NCBI RefSeq assembly: GCF_030013205.1
Contig: NZ_CP122648.1
Reading direction: 5' to 3' (one strand)
DNA: 64,000 bases
Source of the DNA: Escherichia coli
Lineage (GTDB): Bacteria > Pseudomonadota > Gammaproteobacteria > Enterobacterales > Enterobacteriaceae
Shown here in pieces: positions 20-19,824 of the stretch. Made by a program: the position numbers and the translations under genes. Below the pieces are notes generated by a model. The model made no database searches. It saw nothing but the letters and a program-made list of their open reading frames with translations, and was not told the origin of the DNA. Position 1 is the first letter of the stretch, and the number at the start of each line of letters is the position of its first letter.

Positions 20-3000
20 TTAGTCAAACGGCGGTGGGGCCAGCACTTCACGATTACCGTTGTGCCCCTGTTCGCTGACAATCCCCTGCGCTTCCATCTG
101 TTCGATAATACGCGCTGCACGGTTATAACCAATGCGGAACTGACGCTGTACGCCAGAAATTGATGCTTTGCGTTTTTCAGTGACAAACTGCACCGCCTGA
201 TCGAACAACGGATCCAGCTCTTCAGCGCCATCGAAACCGCCCGCGCCACCTTCGCTTTCGCTGTCGGAGGTGATGCCATCAACATACTGTGGGCGACCAC
301 GCGCTTTCCAGTCCTGCACCACGGCATGAACTTCCTGATCGCGAACAAAAGCACCATGGACACGTACCGGCAACGTGGAGTTCGGCCCAGAGTAGAGCAT
401 ATCCCCCATACCCAGCAGTGATTCCGCACCAGCCTGATCAAGAATGGTACGTGAGTCAATCTTACTGGATACGGTAAAGGCGATACGGGTCGGAATATTC
501 GCTTTAATCAGACCAGTAATAACATCAACCGATGGACGCTGAGTTGCCAGTACGAGGTGGATACCCGCGGCACGGGCTTTTTGCGCCAGACGTGCTATCA
601 GCTCTTCCACTTTTTTACCTACGGTCATCATCAGGTCGGCAAATTCGTCCACCAAAACCACAATGTATGGTTCTTTTTTCAGCACCGGATGCTGGACGTC
701 CATACTGTCACCCGGCTTCCAGTACGGGTCTGGAATCGGACGCATCATGCGATCGGCTTCAGCAATTTTTTCGTTATAACCCGCCAGATTACGCACACCT
801 AGGGCGGACATCAGCTTATAACGACGTTCCATTTCATTTACGCACCAGCGCAAAGCGTTGGCAGCATCTTTCATGTCGGTAACGACTTCCGTTAACAGAT
901 GCGGAATGCCTTCATAAACCGAAAGCTCCAGCATTTTCGGGTCGATCATGATGAAACGCACATCTTCTGGCTGTGCTTTATAAAGCATGCTCAGGATCAT
1001 CGCGTTCACACCGACAGACTTACCGGAACCGGTAGTCCCCGCAACCAACAAGTGCGGCATTTTCGCCAGATCGGCAACCACCGGCTCACCGGCGATATCT
1101 TTACCCAGTACCACGGTTAATGGCGACGGATTATCGCGGAATTTGGCGTTATCCAAAACTTCGCGCAGATATACGGTTTGTCGTTTTTTATTCGGTAACT
1201 CCAGACCTACATAGGGTTTGCCAGGAATAACTTCAACGACACGCACCGCCACCGTCGAAAGTGAACGGGCAAGGTCACGTGACAAGTTAGAAATACGCGC
1301 CGCTTTTACGCCCGGTGCCAGGTTCAATTCAAAGCGAGTGATAACCGGCCCCGGAGAATAATTGACGACATCGGCTTTAATACGGAAATCAGCCAGACGC
1401 GCTTCCACCAGACGCGCCATTTGTTCAAGCGCAAAGGTATCTACCGGCTCCACTTCGCTCGGCGGAGGTGTCAACAAATCCAAAGAAGGCAGCGGCGTCG
1501 TCGGTTTATGCAACGGACGGCTGTCGCCATTACGCATCAACAGCGGATGAAGCAGGGTATCCTGCGGCTGTGGCGCAACTGGCTGTTGTGGCTGCTGATA
1601 CTGCGGCTGCGGTGCAACCGGTTGTTGTGGCTGCTGATACTGCTGCTGCGGCGCAACCGGTTGTTGTGGCTGCTGATACTGCGGCTGCGGTGCAACCGGT
1701 TGTTGCGGCTGCTGATATTGTGGCTGCGGCGCAACCTGCTGTTGTGGCTGCTGATACTGCTGCTGCGGTGCAACCGGTTGTTGCGGCTGCTGTACAGGTT
1801 CAACAATTGGCGTAAACAACGGTTCGTGTGGACCATCATCCAGCAACGCTTTCATTGGCGAAAATTCAAAATCATCCAGCGAGAACGGATTCGCCCCAGC
1901 CGGTTGTTCGCCGGAATAACGTTGTTGTTGAGTTTGCGCAAACTGACGAGCCAGTTCAGCCTCTGCCGCAGCATCTGCATCTTCTGCGTTTACGGGCACA
2001 TCATGTTGATACTGTTCGCCATAGCGTTGCTGCTGTGTCTGGGCGAACTGACGTGCCAGTTCATCCTGCTGCATCGCATCGATTTCATCATCGTTGTACT
2101 GATCGCCAGAATCGTACTGATTGCGCTGGGCTTCACGGGCTTTTTCTTCTGCCGCACGCTGTGAGGGCAGCTTAATACCGTAAGACGCCAATTCACGACG
2201 AGTTGGCACGCGGATACGTTTCGGTCGTGGCAACTGCGGGCCAATCCCCTCTTTGACCTGCGGACGCGGTCCACCGCTATTTGCCAGACTGAAGACTGGC
2301 GCGGCAACGGTTGCGGCAGCCCCCGTCGCCAGTGTCGCTTTTTTCACGCCAGATGCCAGCGGAGAAACAGCGGCAGCGGCTTCTACTGGAGGTACTGCTG
2401 CAACAGAAGGTGCTTTCAGCGAAGATTTGATCGGTTCTGGTTCTTTAACCGGTTCAGGAATCGGTTGATACCAGGCCGCAAGTTGTTCACGTTCACGGGC
2501 ACGCTTCTCTTCCACTTCTTCAAAATAGTAAAGCGGCGGACGCGCGGGTTTTGTCTCTTCTACAACGGGCTCAGGCTCCACAACAGGGTGCTGTTCAACG
2601 GGTTGCGGCTGTTGGTACAACGGCTCCTGAGCGGCTGGCTGCTGATAAGTTTGCTCAGTCTGGTATGTAGACTGTGGAGCAAAAGTGGATTGCTGCTCTT
2701 CGGCTTGCCAGGCGTTACCTGCCGCCGTTTGTTCTGGCGCAGGGGCGTAATACGGCTGTTGCGCAGACTGTTCCGCCGCAGTTGCATAATACGGCTGCTG
2801 AACAGGTTGTTCCGCCGCAGGAGCGTAGTGAGGTTGTTGCACAGGTTGTTCCGCTGCTGGCGCATAATACGGCGGCTGTGGCTGTACAGGTTGTTGCAGC
2901 GGCTCATTATATTGCACTGCAGGCTGCGCATATTGTGGCTGCTGTGGGTAACCTTCCGGTGCCGGAGCAATCACCGGCTCTCCCGTTTGTGGACCCGGTA

Positions 3001-4087
3001 CAGGCTGCCAGGCTACTGTAGGTTGCGAAGGTGGAACATCAACAGAGGCAACAGGCGGCGTCTGAGTCACAGGTTCAACCGGCGCAGCCCAGCTTTGTGT
3101 CGCCGTGGTAGCAGCAGCTGCTACAGCAACAGGTTCGGTAATTGGCGCACCATTTAATAATGGATCGTATTCGTCATATTCTGGCTGCGTTGCACGATTG
3201 CCCGAAAAGAGGACGTCGTCAGGGTCGGCAGCCACACCGCGTGCAGTGTAGGTAATCTCTTCGTCATCATCCATCCGCTTACCGGAGAACAACGCAGCGT
3301 CTGTTTGCCGCCCCATCGGATTAATGAATTTTTCCGCCAACCGTTTACGACGCGCTAACGCGCCGCGAAGAATACGGGCACGGCGTGATTCATGCTGTTT
3401 GCCGTGATTTTCATCTTCATACTCTTCGTCATCTTCATACTCATCTTCATCGACCCAGGTATCATCGCGACGGGTACGATTACTGGCGAAGGTGAGAATG
3501 TTTAAAATCCAGCCGCCGAGTTTTTCAGCAATGGTCACCCATGACCAACCGGTGAACAGCGTCAGACCCGCAGCCCAAACGCAGAGCAGCGCAATAGTTC
3601 CCCCGCTACTGTGTAGCAGTGGTTGTAGCGTAGTGCTTAGTAAGCTGCCAATGACGCCACCGGAGGCAAAATACCAGATATCGTCAGCGTTGATTGCCGC
3701 CAGACCACAGGAGGTAAGGATGAGCGCCAAAACGCCAATGATGCGTAGCGAAACGGCAAAATAATCAATGTATTCGTCGCTGGACTGATGACGCCAGGCA
3801 AACCAACAACCGCCGACAATAATGACGGGAATGGTGTAAGCCATCACGCCAAAAATAAAGAACAGCGTATCTGCCAGCCACGCACCGGGCATCCCACCTA
3901 AATTATGGATAGGTTCATGCCAGGCCGTTTGCGACCAGCTGGGGTCCGAAGGGTTAAAGCTTAGTAAGGCAGCCATCAACCAGACGGCAAACAGGACAAT
4001 AAGGATCAGCAACGCCTCCAGAAGGCGGCGGCCGCTACTTAACTTTGTCAATGTGACTTCTTTGTCTTCAGTGTATTCCTGGCTCAA
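20..4087 (-). CDS. ftsK: DNA translocase FtsK
   Basis: 1355 aa ORF; N-terminal membrane domain, long PQ-rich linker, C-terminal Walker A (GTTGSGKS) motor domain; matches K-12 FtsK from memory. Confidence 0.95.
1565..1800. repeat. In-frame 39 bp tandem repeats in the ftsK linker (13 aa units of the type [13 protein letters not shown])
   Basis: Visible period-39 repetition of ggctgctgatactgcggctgcggtgcaaccggttgttgt and near-copies. Confidence 0.8.
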
Positions 4088-4221: not shown

Positions 4222-4716
4222 TTAGCGCGTCTTAATAACCAGACGATTACTCTGCTTGACTTCTTCCATAACAACGTATGTCCGTGTGTCATTGACGCCA
4301 GGCAGACGCAGCAGGGTTTCCCCCAGCAACTTACGGTAAGCTGACATATCCGGCACGCGTGTTTTCAACAGGTAGTCGAAATCACCGGATACTAAATGAC
4401 ACTCCTGAATTTCTTCAAGTTTTTGTACAGCGGTATTGAATTGTTCAAACACATCCGGTGCGCCACGATTCAGAGTAATCTCAACGAATACCAGAAGTGA
4501 TGCATCCAGATAATGAGGGTTCAGCAGCGCCGTATAGCCCTGAATAAACCCTTGTCTTTCCAGCCGACGCACACGCTCAAGGCACGGCGTTGGGGAAAGT
4601 CCCACACGTTTAGAAAGCTCGACGTTAGAAATACGCCCATCCTTTTGCAACTCATTAAGAATGTTACGATCGATACGGTCGAGATCTTTGCCTGGGCGCT
4701 TCTTGCTATCTACCAT
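4222..4716 (-). CDS. lrp: Leucine-responsive regulatory protein Lrp
   Basis: ORF contains the 164 aa Lrp sequence starting MVDSKKRPGKDLDRIDRNIL; start trimmed from the 182 aa track ORF. Confidence 0.95.
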   Translation of the reverse strand: MVDSKKRPGKDLDRIDRNILNELQKDGRISNVELSKRVGLSPTPCLERVRRLERQGFIQGYTALLNPHYLDASLLVFVEITLNRGAPDVFEQFNTAVQKLEEIQECHLVSGDFDYLLKTRVPDMSAYRKLLGETLLRLPGVNDTRTYVVMEEVKQSNRLVIKTR

Positions 4717-5142
4717 TATTATTGTCTCTCTGTATTCCTTCCCTACTCCTGTCTGACCCTGAAACATCACTGTTCAGAGTCGCTACCCGTCACGATAGAC
4801 CGAAATCATGAAGATTCACGGCGCGCAATGCCTGGGTCTACGGTGAGAAGACCGTTGCCTTGTGGCAGCTATCGACATCACGAATGGCGTCTGTCCACGC
4901 CATACGTAGATTTCACTAGCACGGTAAACATGGTATTTACATGCATGGTTATGCGCATATAAGAATACTGTTTTTTTCTTCCTCGAATGTTTTCGCAAAA
5001 CACCAGGGGATTGTCAAAGCAAAACATCGATTTTTAGTACAACATGCCAGATATTCATTACCAGGGGCGTTTATTCATCATTTAATCGGCTTATAAAGCG
5101 GGAAATTTAAGTAGCAGAGGTGATAATGACGGGAGAATTTGA

Positions 5143-11426: not shown

Positions 11427-11588
11427 TATTCAAAGAAGAGCTCGTACGAAAGTAGGGGCTTTTTTTTCGCATATTGCACACACCGGGGGGATGAGAAGCC
11501 CCGACCGGGGTTCGACAACTGGCGCAGCCAGTTGGACAGACCACGAACACAGTGAGTGGGCTGCCCGCAGGGCGAGCGAAGCGAGTCA

Positions 11589-11611
11589 ATCCCCCCCTCA
11601 CCGCCATATTT
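11589..11611 (+). repeat. Direct repeat of the last ~23 nt of serW plus flanking TATT (aatccccccctcaccgccatatt)
   Basis: Near-identical copy of 11404-11430 located ~185 bp downstream; each copy is followed by a related A-rich/ctcgtacgaaagta segment. Confidence 0.8.
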
Positions 11612-11617
11612 AAAGAA

Positions 11618-11647
11618 AAACTCGTACGAAAGTACGAGTTTTTTTTC
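11618..11647 (+). terminator. Rho-independent terminator-like hairpin (ctcgtac-gaaa-gtacgag followed by T8)
   Basis: Perfect 7 bp stem, 4 nt loop, U-run; a degenerate copy sits at 11432-11458. Confidence 0.6.
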
Positions 11648-11889
11648 GCATTTTATCTGCCTGTACGGCAGTGAACTCAAATACTACACGTTTAGTCCGT
11701 TATTAATAAAGCAAAACCATCTCATTTTCCTGCTACCACCCTTTTTTATCCTTACCTTCCCGCAGCACTAATTATCAACAACTTACCATCATCATCAAAA
11801 AAAGGGTCTGAACCTCCTCCACCCCATAAACAAAAAGTCCGTAACCTCTTTCGAGATTACGGACTTCACCAACCTACCTGACAATTAGA

Positions 11890-14622: not shown

Positions 14623-14691
14623 TATCATTTAGTTAATTAGTCTTTATTTTTCATTATGTTGCAAATAACAACCCCGTCAAAAACAGTGATA

Positions 14692-14714
14692 TTAACTACA
14701 CCATTAACTACACC
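14692..14714. promoter_or_regulatory. Putative integrase arm-type sites (ttaactacaccattaactacacc) followed by cgaacaa repeats
   Basis: Tandem 11-mer direct repeat; a near-identical copy lies at 25069-25091 just upstream of the int start. Confidence 0.45.
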
Positions 14715-15303
14715 GCTTCACGAACAATATCGAACAACCGCGAACAAAGATCAACACGCTTTAATCATTATCATTTTCCGGCTATCCGTCATGAAGCTGG
14801 TGGATGATCTGCGTGGTGATTTCCACCATTCAGAGCAGGGGCGGTCATCATGACCATGCCATAACAAAAACCCCATATTCGTGGTTTTTCTGTGTCGGGG
14901 CTATTCTGCTGTTGCCGTGCTGGTGGATATTCTCCGGTATGCGGCTCCCCATATCGGCATCAGGCCCACCAGCGTGAAGCGTTTTTCATTTTTCGCGGGT
15001 ATAAAAAATCGATGGGGCGGGCAGTCCTGAAGACGTCAGGGTACGGAGATTTGACCCGCCCCTCCCTGTGCATGAGCACAATAAGTAACCGAAGGCGGAA
15101 TTCCGCCCTCGGTACTTACATATGAGAAACGATATTTCTTCCACCGATACCCTTTATTTGGGTATTGCGAGTAAGCCCCAAAATCTGGGTGTTACTCTTA
15201 CTACCCAAACTACGGGTAGTTTCCGTAGTTTCATGGTCGAGTTGCAAATCTGCAACTCACCCACCAGCCAACGCAATTTTGCGTTATCGGGAATATCAGC
15301 AAG

Positions 15304-15591
15304 TTACCGCCGCAGTCGTTCCGGCTTCTTCCACTGGTAAGTATTTTTCGCGCTCTCCCTCCGTTGTTGAGAACGGCGACGGTATGCCAGCAACTCAAGG
15401 ACTCTGGTTCGTATGTTGCGCATATCCACGCCGTTAAGCTCAATACCATCACGGCGCATCACCTCAGCAACAACACGCGCGTAATTTTCAGCGGTGACTG
15501 TATCCGGCTGCGCGGCCTGTTCGTCAGCCAACTGGCTGATTCCACCAGCACAGCGGATTAATCGCAGTATTTCAGATTCGGTCATTATCAT
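15304..15591 (-). CDS. Hypothetical protein (95 aa), island packaging module
   Basis: ORF overlaps the terS-like stop by 4 nt; no recognisable motif. Confidence 0.45.
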   Translation of the reverse strand: MIMTESEILRLIRCAGGISQLADEQAAQPDTVTAENYARVVAEVMRRDGIELNGVDMRNIRTRVLELLAYRRRSQQRRESAKNTYQWKKPERLRR

Positions 15592-16073
15592 GCCTGTTTT
15601 GCGACCTCATTCACTACGTCATTTTTTACCATCCGGCTGATAATCTGATTACACAAATCGTCAATAATTGACTGCACTCTGTTTACTGCCATCGGTTTAA
15701 GCCCGGCATCACGTGCCAGAATATTGGGGAGTTTTGCCAGTTCCTCGCTTACGATTTCCCCCCATATAGCCATCTCTTTTCGCACATCATCGGCGGGTAT
15801 GAGTTGCGCCGTTTCCTGTTCGAACTTGAGGCGTTCACGTTCGGACTGATACCAGGCCTTACGGTCTTGTGGCTCCATTTCTTCCAGTGATGCCGGAACG
15901 GGAAGATCAAGAAAACAGGTCAGAATGTCAGTCACCCGATAGAGTTTCAGCTTGTCATGCCCTCCGGCTGGCTGGATGTTTTTCAGCCTTGCCGCCGCAG
16001 TCTGACGACATATTCCCGCTATCGCCGCCAGTTGATTAATGTTCAGCATCAGATTTTTCAGTTCTCGATCCAT
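15588..16073 (-). CDS. Phage small terminase-like protein (Nu1-like HTH DNA-packaging protein)
   Basis: Start placed at MDRELKNLM (GGAGCGGGT SD); N-terminal HTH LNINQLAAIAGICRQTAAARL; layout resembles lambda Nu1. Confidence 0.55.
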   Translation of the reverse strand: MDRELKNLMLNINQLAAIAGICRQTAAARLKNIQPAGGHDKLKLYRVTDILTCFLDLPVPASLEEMEPQDRKAWYQSERERLKFEQETAQLIPADDVRKEMAIWGEIVSEELAKLPNILARDAGLKPMAVNRVQSIIDDLCNQIISRMVKNDVVNEVAKQA

Positions 16074-16226
16074 ACCCGCTCCAGAATGTTTTAAACATGC
16101 ATCTTGCGAACAACTTTCAGAAGAGGTCAAAAAATGCGCTATATGTTGAGCATAAAACAAGCAAAATTAACATGCCAAAAATAAAAATACTTAAAATTCA
16201 ATACAATATGAAGATGATGATGACGA

Positions 16227-16306
16227 ATGAAAATGCAAAAACTAGCCTTTTTCCGCGCCGCTCCCGCCCCGTGGCAGACCACTCCACCGGGAGGACCCGT
16301 AAAAAA
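16227..16306. repeat. 80 bp conserved element, copy 1 (~92% identical to 18761-18840)
   Basis: atgaaaatgcaaaaac..ccgggaggacccgtaaaaaag; lies between the capsid terminator and terS. Confidence 0.8.
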
Positions 16307-16324
16307 GGCGGCTGTCGCCGCCCT
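16299..16324 (-). terminator. Rho-independent terminator after the protease-capsid gene
   Basis: Minus strand ggcggcgacagccgcc followed by ttttttta. Confidence 0.6.
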
Positions 16325-16329
16325 TGTTG

Positions 16330-18243
16330 TCATGCTCCACTCGATTTCAGTAATCCGCGATAATCGAGGGCCGCGACACCTGCATCTATGCGCACTTTCC
16401 AGGCGACACCATCAACAGTAAAGCCCACCTGCTCCTCAAGATATGGCGTATCCATACCATCAAGATAAGCGACTTCTATTGTGTCCATCCCCTTAGCTGC
16501 GGCTACATACCATTCCTTGCTATTGGCCTTATCAAGACGTGGCTCAACAATTACTTCTGCCATATCTTTCACCACGTTAATGATGCCGGGGTTCTGATTG
16601 ATAGTGCTCTCATCACCAACCGGAAAGACTGATGACGATGACAGAATGGCGCGACGCGCGGCAGATTCCAGCGCGGCAGGGACCAGAACAAAAGCAGGGG
16701 TAATATTCAGTGAGTCGCCGTTAGCATCCTCCTGGAGGCGCATCAGCTTACGGGCTTCATCAAGCCCCACCATGTCCATATCCTTCGCAATAAGATTTTT
16801 ATGATCGGCATGGAATAACGCTTTACCATCCGTAAATTTGCCGTTGCTGGTTAACAGAAGATAAACCAGATTACCTACTGTTCTGGCGGCCGCACGCCCC
16901 ATCGCCATGGGGATTGTAGTTAACTGGGTCAGGTCATCGTTGATAATGGCCTGACGGGTAACAGAAAAAATATTACCGTATGTGGCCAGCGCAATAGGTA
17001 CACCTTTATCGCTGGTGGTGATGTATTTATATTCCGCACCTTCCGGTACTTTATCCAGCTTTGAAAAACCATTCAGACCAACGCGCTTTGCTTCATGAAA
17101 GTTTGAAAGCGATCCGGTACGCGTCCATTTCTGGAACGTTTCGCCGCTGTCCTGCCAGCCTTTCAGCACTGATTTTTCAGCACCACCAGCCAGAATATGA
17201 GAAAAATCGCTGCTGCTGTGTGTGAAAGCTGCATTAACGACCTGCGAGCGATTTAAAAAACTGCCAACACTGATACCACGATCAGTTAGTGATGCCTGGG
17301 CCATTTCAAAAAGGCTCATCATCGCGTAAGGATTTCCCCGCTCTGGGCGTTCATACCCAAGACGAGAATAAAGCCCCTGACGAATTGCATCGCCTGTTAT
17401 GTTCCCGTTACCGGCATAAATATGAGTCGGGATATTTTTATTGGATGGCGTGGACTCGCGCCCCAGCTCGTTCAACAACTTTTCACGGGCCATCTCCGGT
17501 GTACATGATGCATCCTCCAGGCACGCCATTTTGATCCCGTCGTAACGACTGCCGAACAGGCTAAACACTTCACTTATTCCGTTGATGCGCTTCTGTTCAT
17601 TACCAGCAATATTGGCTGCTCCCTGTGGCGGGGTAATCATTCCTTTAATGGTTTCAGGCATGTGTGAAAAATCTCCTGTGCGTTTCGATTCAATTCGCGC
17701 CATTGCTGTGACAGATGGCAACAATTCATCAGCAAAACCGTGCTTAAGGCATTCTTTCCCGTCCATCCAGGTTTCATCTTCCAGCATGGCGGTAATTTCC
17801 TGTGCTGATTTGCCCGTTTTTCTGGCATAAGCAGGGACTAACACGGTTTCCACCTTATCCAGCAAATCAGCATAATCACGCATATCACCAGCATTTCCGC
17901 CAGAGATACCCCACGGCTTATGTATCATCATCATGGCGTTTTCCGGCATCACAACACGATCGCCAGCCATTGCGACAACCGAAGCCATTGAAGCCGCAAC
18001 ACCATCGATATAAACCGTAATTTCTGCCGGATGATTCCGTAACAGGTTATAGATGGCGATGCCTTCAAACACGTCACCACCTGGCGAATGGATCCGCAGG
18101 TCGATATGTGAGACATCGCCCAGGGCTTTCAGGTCTTCCGCAAACTGCTTCGCGGTAATACCGAAGCCGCCAATTTCTTCATAGATGGATATTTCTGCCG
18201 CTCCGCGAACACCCAGCGCCTTAATGGTGTACCAGTGATTCAT
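16330..18243 (-). CDS. Fused prohead protease (ClpP-like) / major capsid protein
   Basis: 637 aa; N-terminal ~200 aa with ClpP-like serine-protease motif (IHSPGGDV); C-terminal ~430 aa of major-capsid size and character. Confidence 0.7.
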   Translation of the reverse strand: MNHWYTIKALGVRGAAEISIYEEIGGFGITAKQFAEDLKALGDVSHIDLRIHSPGGDVFEGIAIYNLLRNHPAEITVYIDGVAASMASVVAMAGDRVVMPENAMMMIHKPWGISGGNAGDMRDYADLLDKVETVLVPAYARKTGKSAQEITAMLEDETWMDGKECLKHGFADELLPSVTAMARIESKRTGDFSHMPETIKGMITPPQGAANIAGNEQKRINGISEVFSLFGSRYDGIKMACLEDASCTPEMAREKLLNELGRESTPSNKNIPTHIYAGNGNITGDAIRQGLYSRLGYERPERGNPYAMMSLFEMAQASLTDRGISVGSFLNRSQVVNAAFTHSSSDFSHILAGGAEKSVLKGWQDSGETFQKWTRTGSLSNFHEAKRVGLNGFSKLDKVPEGAEYKYITTSDKGVPIALATYGNIFSVTRQAIINDDLTQLTTIPMAMGRAAARTVGNLVYLLLTSNGKFTDGKALFHADHKNLIAKDMDMVGLDEARKLMRLQEDANGDSLNITPAFVLVPAALESAARRAILSSSSVFPVGDESTINQNPGIINVVKDMAEVIVEPRLDKANSKEWYVAAAKGMDTIEVAYLDGMDTPYLEEQVGFTVDGVAWKVRIDAGVAALDYRGLLKSSGA

Positions 18244-18449
18244 TGCTCCCCCCCAGATGCAAAACCATTCTTATCAAGCCACGCGTTAACCGCGTGTCTG
18301 ACAATCTGCGCCGCACCTGGTAATGGTTGGTCAGGATGATGATTTATGTGGTCGATCCTGTACTGCTTAAGGCGCATAACGGTCTGCGCATCCAGATGAA
18401 CGGAACCACCTTTTACCTCGCCTGTGTTCAGGTCGTTAATACAATTCAC
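18240..18449 (-). CDS. Hypothetical small protein (69 aa), translationally coupled to the capsid gene
   Basis: GTG start with AAGAGGAAG SD; stop overlaps the capsid ATG. Confidence 0.5.
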   Translation of the reverse strand: MNCINDLNTGEVKGGSVHLDAQTVMRLKQYRIDHINHHPDQPLPGAAQIVRHAVNAWLDKNGFASGGEQ

Positions 18450-18549
18450 AGTAACTTCCTCTTACTGACTAAACTGCGCGCATTATTGATCGATAAAAGT
18501 GGTAGATAAACATATTTCTATCATAAAAATAGATTAATCAGATTCAGAC

Positions 18550-18575
18550 ACAAAAAAGCCGGAGAGAATCCGGCA
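18550..18575 (-). terminator. Rho-independent terminator-like hairpin (gccggattctctccggc followed by T6)
   Basis: Minus-strand stem-loop plus U-run ~100 nt upstream of the 69 aa ORF. Confidence 0.55.
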
Positions 18576-18760
18576 TAAATATCCCGCCATCTGAACACGT
18601 TTTGCACAGGCAACTCCATCTGGCAGGTGAAAAACAAATTTATTTATATATTTCAATTAATTGCAAACTGGTCTAATGACAGGGAGAAAAAAATATTGTA
18701 CAGGTGAAAACAGAAATAACTTTTAATTATCAATAAATTACTACACATGCTGCCGCCGCC

Positions 18761-18840
18761 ATGAAAATGCAAAAACCAGCCTTTTTCCGCGACGCTCCCG
18801 CCCCGTGGCAGGTCACTACACCGGGAGGACCCATAAAAAA
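18761..18840. repeat. 80 bp conserved element, copy 2
   Basis: ~92% identical to 16227-16306. Confidence 0.8.
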
Positions 18841-18858
18841 GCCGGATTGCTCCGGCTT
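18833..18858 (-). terminator. Rho-independent terminator after the SSB-like gene
   Basis: Minus strand gccggagcaatccggc followed by ttttttat. Confidence 0.6.
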
Positions 18859-18872
18859 CTGTTACTCGTTGC

Positions 18873-19295
18873 TTAAAACGGTATGTTATCCCCGTACGGA
18901 TCATCATTTCCCGCCTGTTGTTTTGCTCTGCTCAGTGCATCAGTAGCCTGCCCCTGTTGGCCTTTTTTGCCGCCCGGTCGCGCCGTTCTCGCACTGATTA
19001 CGCTGTCTGCGATAACCTGCCAGCCCTGCCGCGTCTCCCCGTTCTGTCCGGTCCACTGGCTCACCTGCATGTTACCCGCCACGCTCAGGAGTTCACCCTT
19101 GCGGTGCTTTGCCAGTGCTTCGGCCTGTCTGCCAAACGCCAGGACGGATAACCACATCGTCGCCGTTCCGTCATCTGCCTGGCTGCACGGAAGTGGGACC
19201 GCCATACTCGCCATCGTCATTTGTGTACCCTTGCTGGTGGTCTTTAACTGCGGGTCAGCCACCAGCCGCCCGTAAGCCGCTATCTGTGCTGTCAT
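18873..19295 (-). CDS. Single-stranded DNA-binding protein-like
   Basis: 140 aa; OB-fold-like N-terminus (GRLVADPQLK...), Gly/Gln-rich tail ending DDPYGDNIPF, resembling the SSB acidic tip DDDIPF. Confidence 0.65.
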   Translation of the reverse strand: MTAQIAAYGRLVADPQLKTTSKGTQMTMASMAVPLPCSQADDGTATMWLSVLAFGRQAEALAKHRKGELLSVAGNMQVSQWTGQNGETRQGWQVIADSVISARTARPGGKKGQQGQATDALSRAKQQAGNDDPYGDNIPF

Positions 19296-19537
19296 GCTGT
19301 CTGCTCTCCGGTTTTAACGTTGATGGTTGTCACCTGTTCCGCTTCGGCAATCTCCCGTTCTGTCAGCGTGGCAAAGTTTGCAGCTGCCGTTGTCATGAAT
19401 GAGCTAATCAGTTCGGGATGTGCTTTCGCATATCCTTCCCCGGCGTTGCGGTCGATGATTTTTATCGACACCCTTAACCAGTGTTCCGTCAAATCAAGGG
19501 CGTGCGATTGTGATTTTTTTGTGTGCTTCGCTGTCAT
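19292..19537 (-). CDS. Hypothetical protein (81 aa)
   Basis: ORF between the ori and the SSB-like gene; overlaps the ssb start by 4 nt. Confidence 0.45.
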   Translation of the reverse strand: MTAKHTKKSQSHALDLTEHWLRVSIKIIDRNAGEGYAKAHPELISSFMTTAAANFATLTEREIAEAEQVTTINVKTGEQTA

Positions 19538-19584
19538 AGGCTTTATCTCACAGCAGTAAATTAAAATTTTTGCGTTTTAACCCT

Positions 19585-19812
19585 TCACCTGTTCACCTTT
19601 TGATATTTTATCTTTTAATTCATAATGTTAAGGGGTGAACAGTTTCACAAAAACTATTCACCAACTGTTCACCACTGTTCACCCTTGAAGCTCAATAAAC
19701 AATCAAAAAGGTGAACAGTGAATAGTTTGGTGAACAGTTCATAAATAACTGTTCACCCTATAACATACTGATACAAAAGATATTTATGACAGGGTGAACA
19801 GTGGTGAACAGT
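19585..19812. promoter_or_regulatory. Putative replication origin: iteron cluster (at least 9 copies of GTGAACAG/CTGTTCAC) in AT-rich DNA
   Basis: Repeats at about 19587, 19634, 19665, 19676, 19710, 19729, 19750, 19794, 19803 in both orientations, immediately 3' of the primase gene. Confidence 0.65.
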
Positions 19813-19824
19813 TATTCCATAAGT

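Follow-up and report, generated by a model that had tools for sequence, protein, structure and literature searches.

Repeat-number alleles of two 39-bp arrays in the linker of Escherichia coli FtsK and their correspondence to the MLVA loci ms06 and ms07/CVN001

The length of FtsK in the window and in K-12

The FtsK protein encoded in the window (by which we mean the whole 64,000-nucleotide stretch of E. coli contig NZ_CP122648.1 that was analysed) exceeds that of K-12 by 26 aa, and this excess consists of exactly two units of a 39-bp repeat, the MLVA locus ms06, with the window carrying a 4-unit allele of ms06 and a 6-unit allele of ms07 against alleles of 2 and 6 units in K-12, an explanation in which, taken as a whole, our confidence is high. 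The repeat-length polymorphism is VNTR variation of an already known kind; both arrays are long-established markers, there is nothing new or surprising in the way they vary, and the finding is real but ordinary, its biological weight being small. A practical outcome is that the E. coli/Shigella MLVA loci ms06 and ms07/CVN001 can now be pinned to the ftsK linker.

The coding sequence of the DNA translocase FtsK occupies positions 20–4087 on the minus strand (4068 nt, 1355 aa, TTG start) and, according to the ORF list of the window, is the only long open reading frame across the repeat-bearing region at 1565–2960. The architecture of its product is complete, with four Pfam FtsK domains that score far above their gathering thresholds: the N-terminal membrane anchor with four transmembrane segments (PF13491, FtsK_4TM; aa 20–191, 143.8 bits, cut-off 23.1), FtsK_alpha (PF17854; aa 866–966), the P-loop ATPase motor FtsK_SpoIIIE (PF01580; aa 974–1187, 292 bits) and the KOPS/XerD domain FtsK_gamma (PF09397; aa 1290–1350). 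The Walker A motif GTTGSGKS can be read in the translation, lrp (4222–4770) lies upstream on the same strand, as in the gene order lrp-ftsK-lolA, and from K-12 coordinate 937232 downwards the two sequences are collinear. The gene is the E. coli orthologue of the FtsK/SpoIIIE family of DNA translocases. The lolA end of that gene order falls past the window edge. Several further ORFs in this region, including those at 1421–2164 and 2465–3157 on the plus strand, lie entirely within ftsK and were dismissed as genes; in our reading, such opposite-strand and other-frame ORFs are a product of the stop-poor repeat sequence.

In K-12 MG1655, ftsK (b0890) is 3990 nt long and encodes 1329 aa, likewise from a TTG start, so that the preliminary description, which had set an ORF of 1355 aa against a K-12 length of 1329 aa, was right on both figures. 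Alignment of the two proteins places the whole difference in one gap of 26 aa at aa 416–441, with no second indel, and leaves 14 substitutions outside the gap, 12 of which fall within the linker. The 78 bp responsible are units 2 and 3 of the repeat array that we call array B (2762–2839, minus strand; aa 417–442), in which the window has four units and K-12 two. The excess had been ascribed beforehand to in-frame 39-bp tandem repeats at 1565–1800 together with a second repeat family at about 2700–2960, and the linker alignment and unit count that had been suggested as a check, once run, confirmed the reference length and put the difference inside array B. The attribution thus stands for in-frame repeats of the second family, in which the 78-bp gap lies, but not for the first array (array A). 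That both arrays contribute to the difference from K-12 would be in keeping with the greater variability of array A across E. coli (5–9 units, n=60), but window and K-12 alike have six array A units and a 587-bp ms07 amplicon, and the two proteins align without a gap at array A, which makes a joint contribution extremely improbable.

A second way of accounting for the additional array B units is that they are an assembly artefact, a repeat mis-expanded in the course of sequence reconstruction. Repeat arrays do attract assembly errors, and in one genome of our sample, CRE10, array A is garbled. The window allele is nevertheless found, over the entire 4068-nt gene, as a single-piece match of 100.0% in 18 complete E. 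coli genomes, all of them pig-derived and with O139:H1 and ETEC-named strains among them, while ftsK identity in every other E. coli is 95–99%. Moreover, a 4-unit array B occurs in about one-third of the sampled genomes, the four units can be told apart and correspond one-to-one with units 1–4 of other strains, and the reading frame of the window gene is intact. An artefact is therefore hardly conceivable as the source of the two units.

Structure of the arrays and origin of their alleles

Both arrays lie within the Pro/Gln-rich linker of about 650 aa (FtsK-L) that joins the FtsK-N membrane anchor to the FtsK-C motor. Array A (1556–1789, minus strand), the locus ms07/CVN001, consists of six in-frame 39-bp units at aa 767–844, and Tandem Repeats Finder reports it at 1562–1792 with a period of 39, 5.9 copies, 88% matches and a score of 364. 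Array B (2723–2878, minus strand), the locus ms06, consists of four in-frame 39-bp units at aa 404–455, and is reported from 2729 to 2873 or 2878, with a period of either 39 (3.7 copies, 73%) or 78 (1.9 copies, 79%). Upstream of array B are two degenerate, repeat-like units (2879–2956, minus strand; 26 residues at aa 378–403, read in the 13-aa register) that fall under the detection level of Tandem Repeats Finder yet are present in every allele examined; since array B and these units together reach about 2956, the bounds of 2700–2960 given earlier for the second repeat family were loose but fair. Identity at a lag of 39 nt amounts to 169/195 (87%) in array A and 85/117 (73%) in array B, against a maximum of 72/150 (48%) in the best 150-nt window of the control, for which the PQ-rich linker by itself was codon-shuffled 200 times and every lag between 6 and 120 was scored. 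Both arrays are head-to-tail 39-bp repeats, in frame and far above chance.

The units of array A differ from one another by 1–7 nt only, and those of array B by 8–12 of 39 nt within one array. Among all pairs of array A units, 42 codon differences are synonymous and 23 are not, and the peptide motif is therefore under some constraint. Allele counts were taken from evenly spaced samples of 60 drawn from the complete E. coli genomes, 5,426 in all; array A was sized with a flank-only BLAST query from which the array had been deleted. Array B alleles of 2, 3 and 4 units make up nearly equal thirds of the sample (19, 19 and 21 genomes, respectively), and the one remaining genome has 2 units minus 18 bp. 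At array A, 7 units are commonest (26 genomes), followed by 6 units (20), 8 units (6), 5 units (2) and 9 units (1); one genome has 6 units minus 3 bp, three have partial-unit inserts, and one gave a partial match that is an assembly artefact. A few alleles carry indels of part of a unit (+15, +24 and −18 bp). The arrays had been called slippage-prone beforehand, a term that suits array A, with its 5–9 units and its small differences between units, and suits array B less well; in the 60 genomes, as in each of three data sets from the literature, array B has only three size classes (2, 3 and 4).

Since ms06 and ms07 lie in the ftsK linker, the annotated length of FtsK varies with them, from 1316 to 1394 aa among the alleles that we fetched. 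Of the eight fetched loci, seven are annotated as 1316, 1328, 1342, 1347, 1350, 1381 and 1394 aa and the eighth is labelled 'frameshifted', and copy differences of whole units were confirmed unit by unit in the eight fetched alleles. All nine intact alleles that were fetched or compared (1316–1394 aa) are in frame, and every change in length falls inside the two arrays. The 4250-nt 'frameshifted' ftsK of CRE10 was considered as an extreme allele and rejected as an assembly artefact, its array A being garbled and containing an error-ridden duplicate of the flank that lies upstream. The ftsK arrays are spots at which noisy assemblies yield false calls of a 'frameshifted' ftsK.

Comparison of units between strains bears on how the alleles arise. 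Units 1–4 of array B in the window match units 1–4 of strain 2014C-3655 with 5, 1, 3 and 3 differences, respectively, and units 1 and 4 of this 4-unit allele have exactly the sequences of the two K-12 units. Set against the window, K-12 unit 1 has its nearest counterparts in units 1 and 3, with 5 differences to either, and K-12 unit 2 in unit 4 (3 differences). In 3-unit alleles, the third and last unit is hybrid, joining the 5′ end of unit 3 (1 difference) to the 3′ end of unit 4 (0 differences). These hybrid and identical units are footprints of in-register misalignment, which slippage and unequal exchange would leave alike. Misalignment of units in register, via replication slippage or unequal homologous exchange, very probably creates the alleles, and whole 13-aa modules are gained or lost in this way without the frame ever being broken, a 39-bp unit being a whole number of codons. 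Array B also has a super-period of 78 bp, unit 1 resembling unit 3 and unit 2 resembling unit 4, and its units 2 and 3 are 8–12 of 39 nt away from units 1 and 4; both features point to an old 4-unit form that came from a duplicated block of two units, although this falls short of proof that it is ancestral. A degenerate DNA-pattern scan of genome contigs yielded one outgroup locus, that of Escherichia sp. MOD1-EC7003 (91% identical), which has two array B units that resemble units 1 and 4.

Array A is the livelier of the two arrays, and its equal-length alleles have different internal unit orders. This applies to the window and K-12, in which array A (aa 741–818 in the K-12 protein) has the same number of units with the unit variants in a different order: unit 2 of the window corresponds to unit 3 of K-12, and the 'VPP' unit of K-12 is missing from the window. 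Because alleles of equal length differ in internal order, the shared 587-bp size is homoplasy, and fragment-length typing therefore under-resolves ms07.

That tandem repeats occur within a coding sequence, the sole point that speaks for phase variation, might lead one to regard the arrays as a contingency locus by which FtsK is turned on and off, or from one form to another, at high frequency. With a unit of 13 codons and nine intact alleles in frame, however, neither the frame shift nor the change in promoter spacing on which phase variation depends is found. The essential nature of the FtsK N-terminal domain argues against on/off switching, and alleles appear to be stable within clones, as judged by the 100% identity of the 18 porcine genomes and by the low within-serotype diversity of Shigella flexneri (0–0.11 at ms06 and 0–0.50 at ms07). 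We consider the probability of such switching to be negligible.

Consequences for the FtsK linker

FtsK-L has been described as unstructured, variable in length between species and non-essential for growth (PMC5357621, citing Bigot 2004 and Dubarry 2010), and arrays A and B lie inside the linker so described. The work of Bigot 2004 and Dubarry 2010 used large deletions of the linker, in contrast to the natural repeat-number alleles described here, and among the linker studies that we read none dealt with such alleles in E. coli. Mutations and deletions of the linker are reported to raise filamentation, and FtsK-L is described as having a part in normal division, some of its regions being in contact with FtsQ, FtsL, FtsI and FtsZ.

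Two extra 13-aa modules lengthen a tether of about 650 aa by about 4%, and added units would accordingly alter the length of this flexible tether only slightly, probably with little or no phenotypic effect. A swap of ftsK repeat alleles between two strains of Salmonella Enteritidis left survival in egg white unchanged in one assay. From this single Salmonella assay, and given that several common alleles coexist, we infer a neutral or nearly neutral polymorphism that marks lineages, which would be the reason why the arrays work for typing.

It is also conceivable, though in our judgement improbable, that the copy number of the two 13-aa PQ modules tunes FtsK, by setting the reach of the tether or by supplying modules that bind divisome partners. 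Copy number would then act as an adaptive knob, the length or valency of the PQ tether altering motor reach or divisome engagement, and each allele would suit the lifestyle of its lineage, a proposal to which we likewise attach a low probability. The filamentation that follows linker deletions and the contacts with divisome proteins are consistent with it, as are the retention of the 13-aa motif at the peptide level despite synonymous divergence and the occurrence of a 39-bp array in Salmonella ftsK at aa 757–784, the position of array A. Against it, the three array B alleles are about equally frequent and at least five alleles of array A occur side by side, in genomes from different hosts and pathotypes; a change of 13–26 aa is 2–4% of a disordered linker; the Salmonella allele swap was without phenotype in its single assay; and equal-length alleles of array A differ internally, as drift predicts. 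If tuning did occur, copy number might shift septum closure in time with respect to chromosome-dimer resolution, and it would be balancing or lineage-specific selection, not drift, that holds the ms06 alleles of 2, 3 and 4 units at nearly equal frequencies. The reading that we prefer remains that of essentially neutral, lineage-marking variation.

The Salmonella repeat is itself a known 39-bp VNTR, STTR7/SENTR2, which lies in the ftsK linker and has 9.3 copies in S. Enteritidis, where the indel at aa 757–784 corresponds in position to array A. It belongs to a different genus, and its putative homology to array A is judged by gene, position and period.

Correspondence to the published typing loci

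The two arrays possess the features of VNTR typing loci, namely a 39-bp unit, flanking published primers and variation by whole units, and the expectation that they could serve in strain typing had been anticipated in practice, given that they are already in use as ms06 and ms07/CVN001. Both loci were assigned to ftsK by primer mapping in the present analysis, and the E. coli and Shigella typing papers that we read do not name the gene. Primer sequences for ms06 and ms07, taken from PMC4553163 and PMC8215070, were mapped onto the window and K-12. The same papers describe the two loci as 39-bp VNTRs with alleles 2–4 and 1–12, respectively.

The predicted ms06 amplicon of the window spans 2610–2988 on the minus strand and measures 379 bp (forward site 2969–2988 with 1 mismatch, reverse site 2610–2629 with 0 mismatches), versus 301 bp in K-12. 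The published sizes range from 301 to 379 bp, for alleles 2, 3 and 4 (PMC4553163, PMC8215070), and the window and K-12 amplicons are the two extremes of this range. The locus, which belongs to the Shigella/E. coli panel of Gorge et al. 2008 and has the alias SF33, agrees with array B in its 39-bp unit, in the position of its primers, which bracket the array, and in its allele classes, which match those of our sample; apart from the single mismatch in the forward site of the window strain, there is no essential difference between the two. In S. flexneri, alleles 2–4 have been reported for ms06 and alleles 2–8 for ms07.

The predicted ms07 amplicon spans 1466–2052 on the minus strand (forward site 2033–2052 with 0 mismatches, reverse site 1466–1485 with 3 mismatches), and its size of 587 bp, the same in the window and K-12, falls inside the published range of 392–821 bp. 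One of the three mismatches in the reverse site sits 3 nt from the 3′ end. According to PMC4553163, ms07 is equivalent to CVN001, for which 4–8 repeats have been reported; the locus, with the alias SF12, is found both in the panel of Gorge et al. 2008 and in the generic E. coli MLVA of Lindstedt et al. 2007, and its unit is 39 bp, with primers that bracket array A. The published locus and the array are both multi-allelic (1–12, 2–8 and 4–8 in the literature, 5–9 in our sample). In the porcine lineage to which the window belongs, the three mismatches to the ms07 reverse primer could weaken or abolish the PCR product.

Unit order and primer match at array A

The first of the two 39-bp repeat arrays in the ftsK linker (array A, window 1556-1789, the MLVA locus ms07 = CVN001) has six units and yields a 587-bp amplicon both in the window and in the ftsK locus of K-12, and the order of the unit variants differs between the two: unit 2 of the window matches unit 3 of K-12, and the window lacks the 'VPP' unit that K-12 has. 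The equal length of the array in the two sequences is a case of size homoplasy. In this lineage the site of the ms07/CVN001 reverse primer (window 1466-1485) carries three mismatches, reading AGGTGTCAACAAATCCAAAG against CGGTGTCAGCAAATCCAGAG in the primer, and one of them lies 3 nt from the primer 3′ end. During MLVA of these porcine strains, such mismatches could lower PCR yield at this locus, or could produce a null allele.

Irregular ftsK alleles and further repeats

In addition to whole-unit changes, some ftsK alleles contain partial-unit indels, as found in strains MS15046, 2012C-4502 and ZJ3920, whose FtsK proteins are 1347, 1350 and 1328 aa long, respectively. Among these three alleles, array A carries partial-unit inserts of +15 bp (an additional YQQPQ) and +24 bp, and in ZJ3920 an 18-bp deletion has removed the junction of the degenerate, repeat-like units with unit 1 of the second array (array B). 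The ftsK gene of E. coli CRE10 (NZ_CP034404.1), 4250 nt in length, is annotated as 'frameshifted'. Its array A region (positions 2577-3031 of the extracted locus, L008) contains a second copy of the upstream flank that is full of errors, together with several 1-nt indels. The error-ridden flank duplicate and the 1-nt indels suggest that noisy assembly has produced an artefact within the VNTR and that the gene is not a real pseudogene.

Two internal repeats beyond arrays A and B are present in ftsK, neither differing from K-12. One is a stretch with 18/9/6-bp periodicity (window 3411-3451) that codes for a 14-aa acidic run, and the other is a 14-aa motif present in two copies (aa 675-688 and 711-724, window about 1916-2065), the first of which contains the ms07 forward primer.

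In the collection of complete E. coli genomes, a few ftsK linker matches fell on plasmid-classed records. Queries with array B and flank-only queries had 8 such places and queries with array A had 20-24, none of them among the matches listed.

Segments that differ from K-12

Comparison with K-12 revealed differences elsewhere in the window. A small segment adjoining tRNA-Ser (serW; window 11476-11656) had no K-12 alignment by megablast. Between ybjP and ybjQ, about 2.5 kb (43497-46044) is missing in K-12; its single ORF (43646-45448, minus strand, 600 aa) gave only weak pentapeptide-repeat matches, all under the Pfam cut-offs. Collinearity ends at window 62332 (K-12 coordinate 887963), beside rybB, a small-RNA gene located at 887979-888057 in K-12, and no counterpart of the last 1.7 kb (62332-64000) was found within the K-12 region compared; a prophage or island at rybB may have its edge here.

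The cspD-clpS interval contains an insertion of about 10.6 kb (14624-25211) that is missing in K-12 and carries every ORF on the minus strand. They encode a tyrosine integrase (23806-25053) that has an Arm-DNA-binding domain, a D5-type primase-helicase (19825-21657), an SSB (18873-19295), a fused ClpP-protease and phage-capsid ORF of 637 aa (16330-18243) and a DUF1441 protein (15588-16160). The insertion resembles a small phage satellite or an island of the PICI type, perhaps one that forms capsids.
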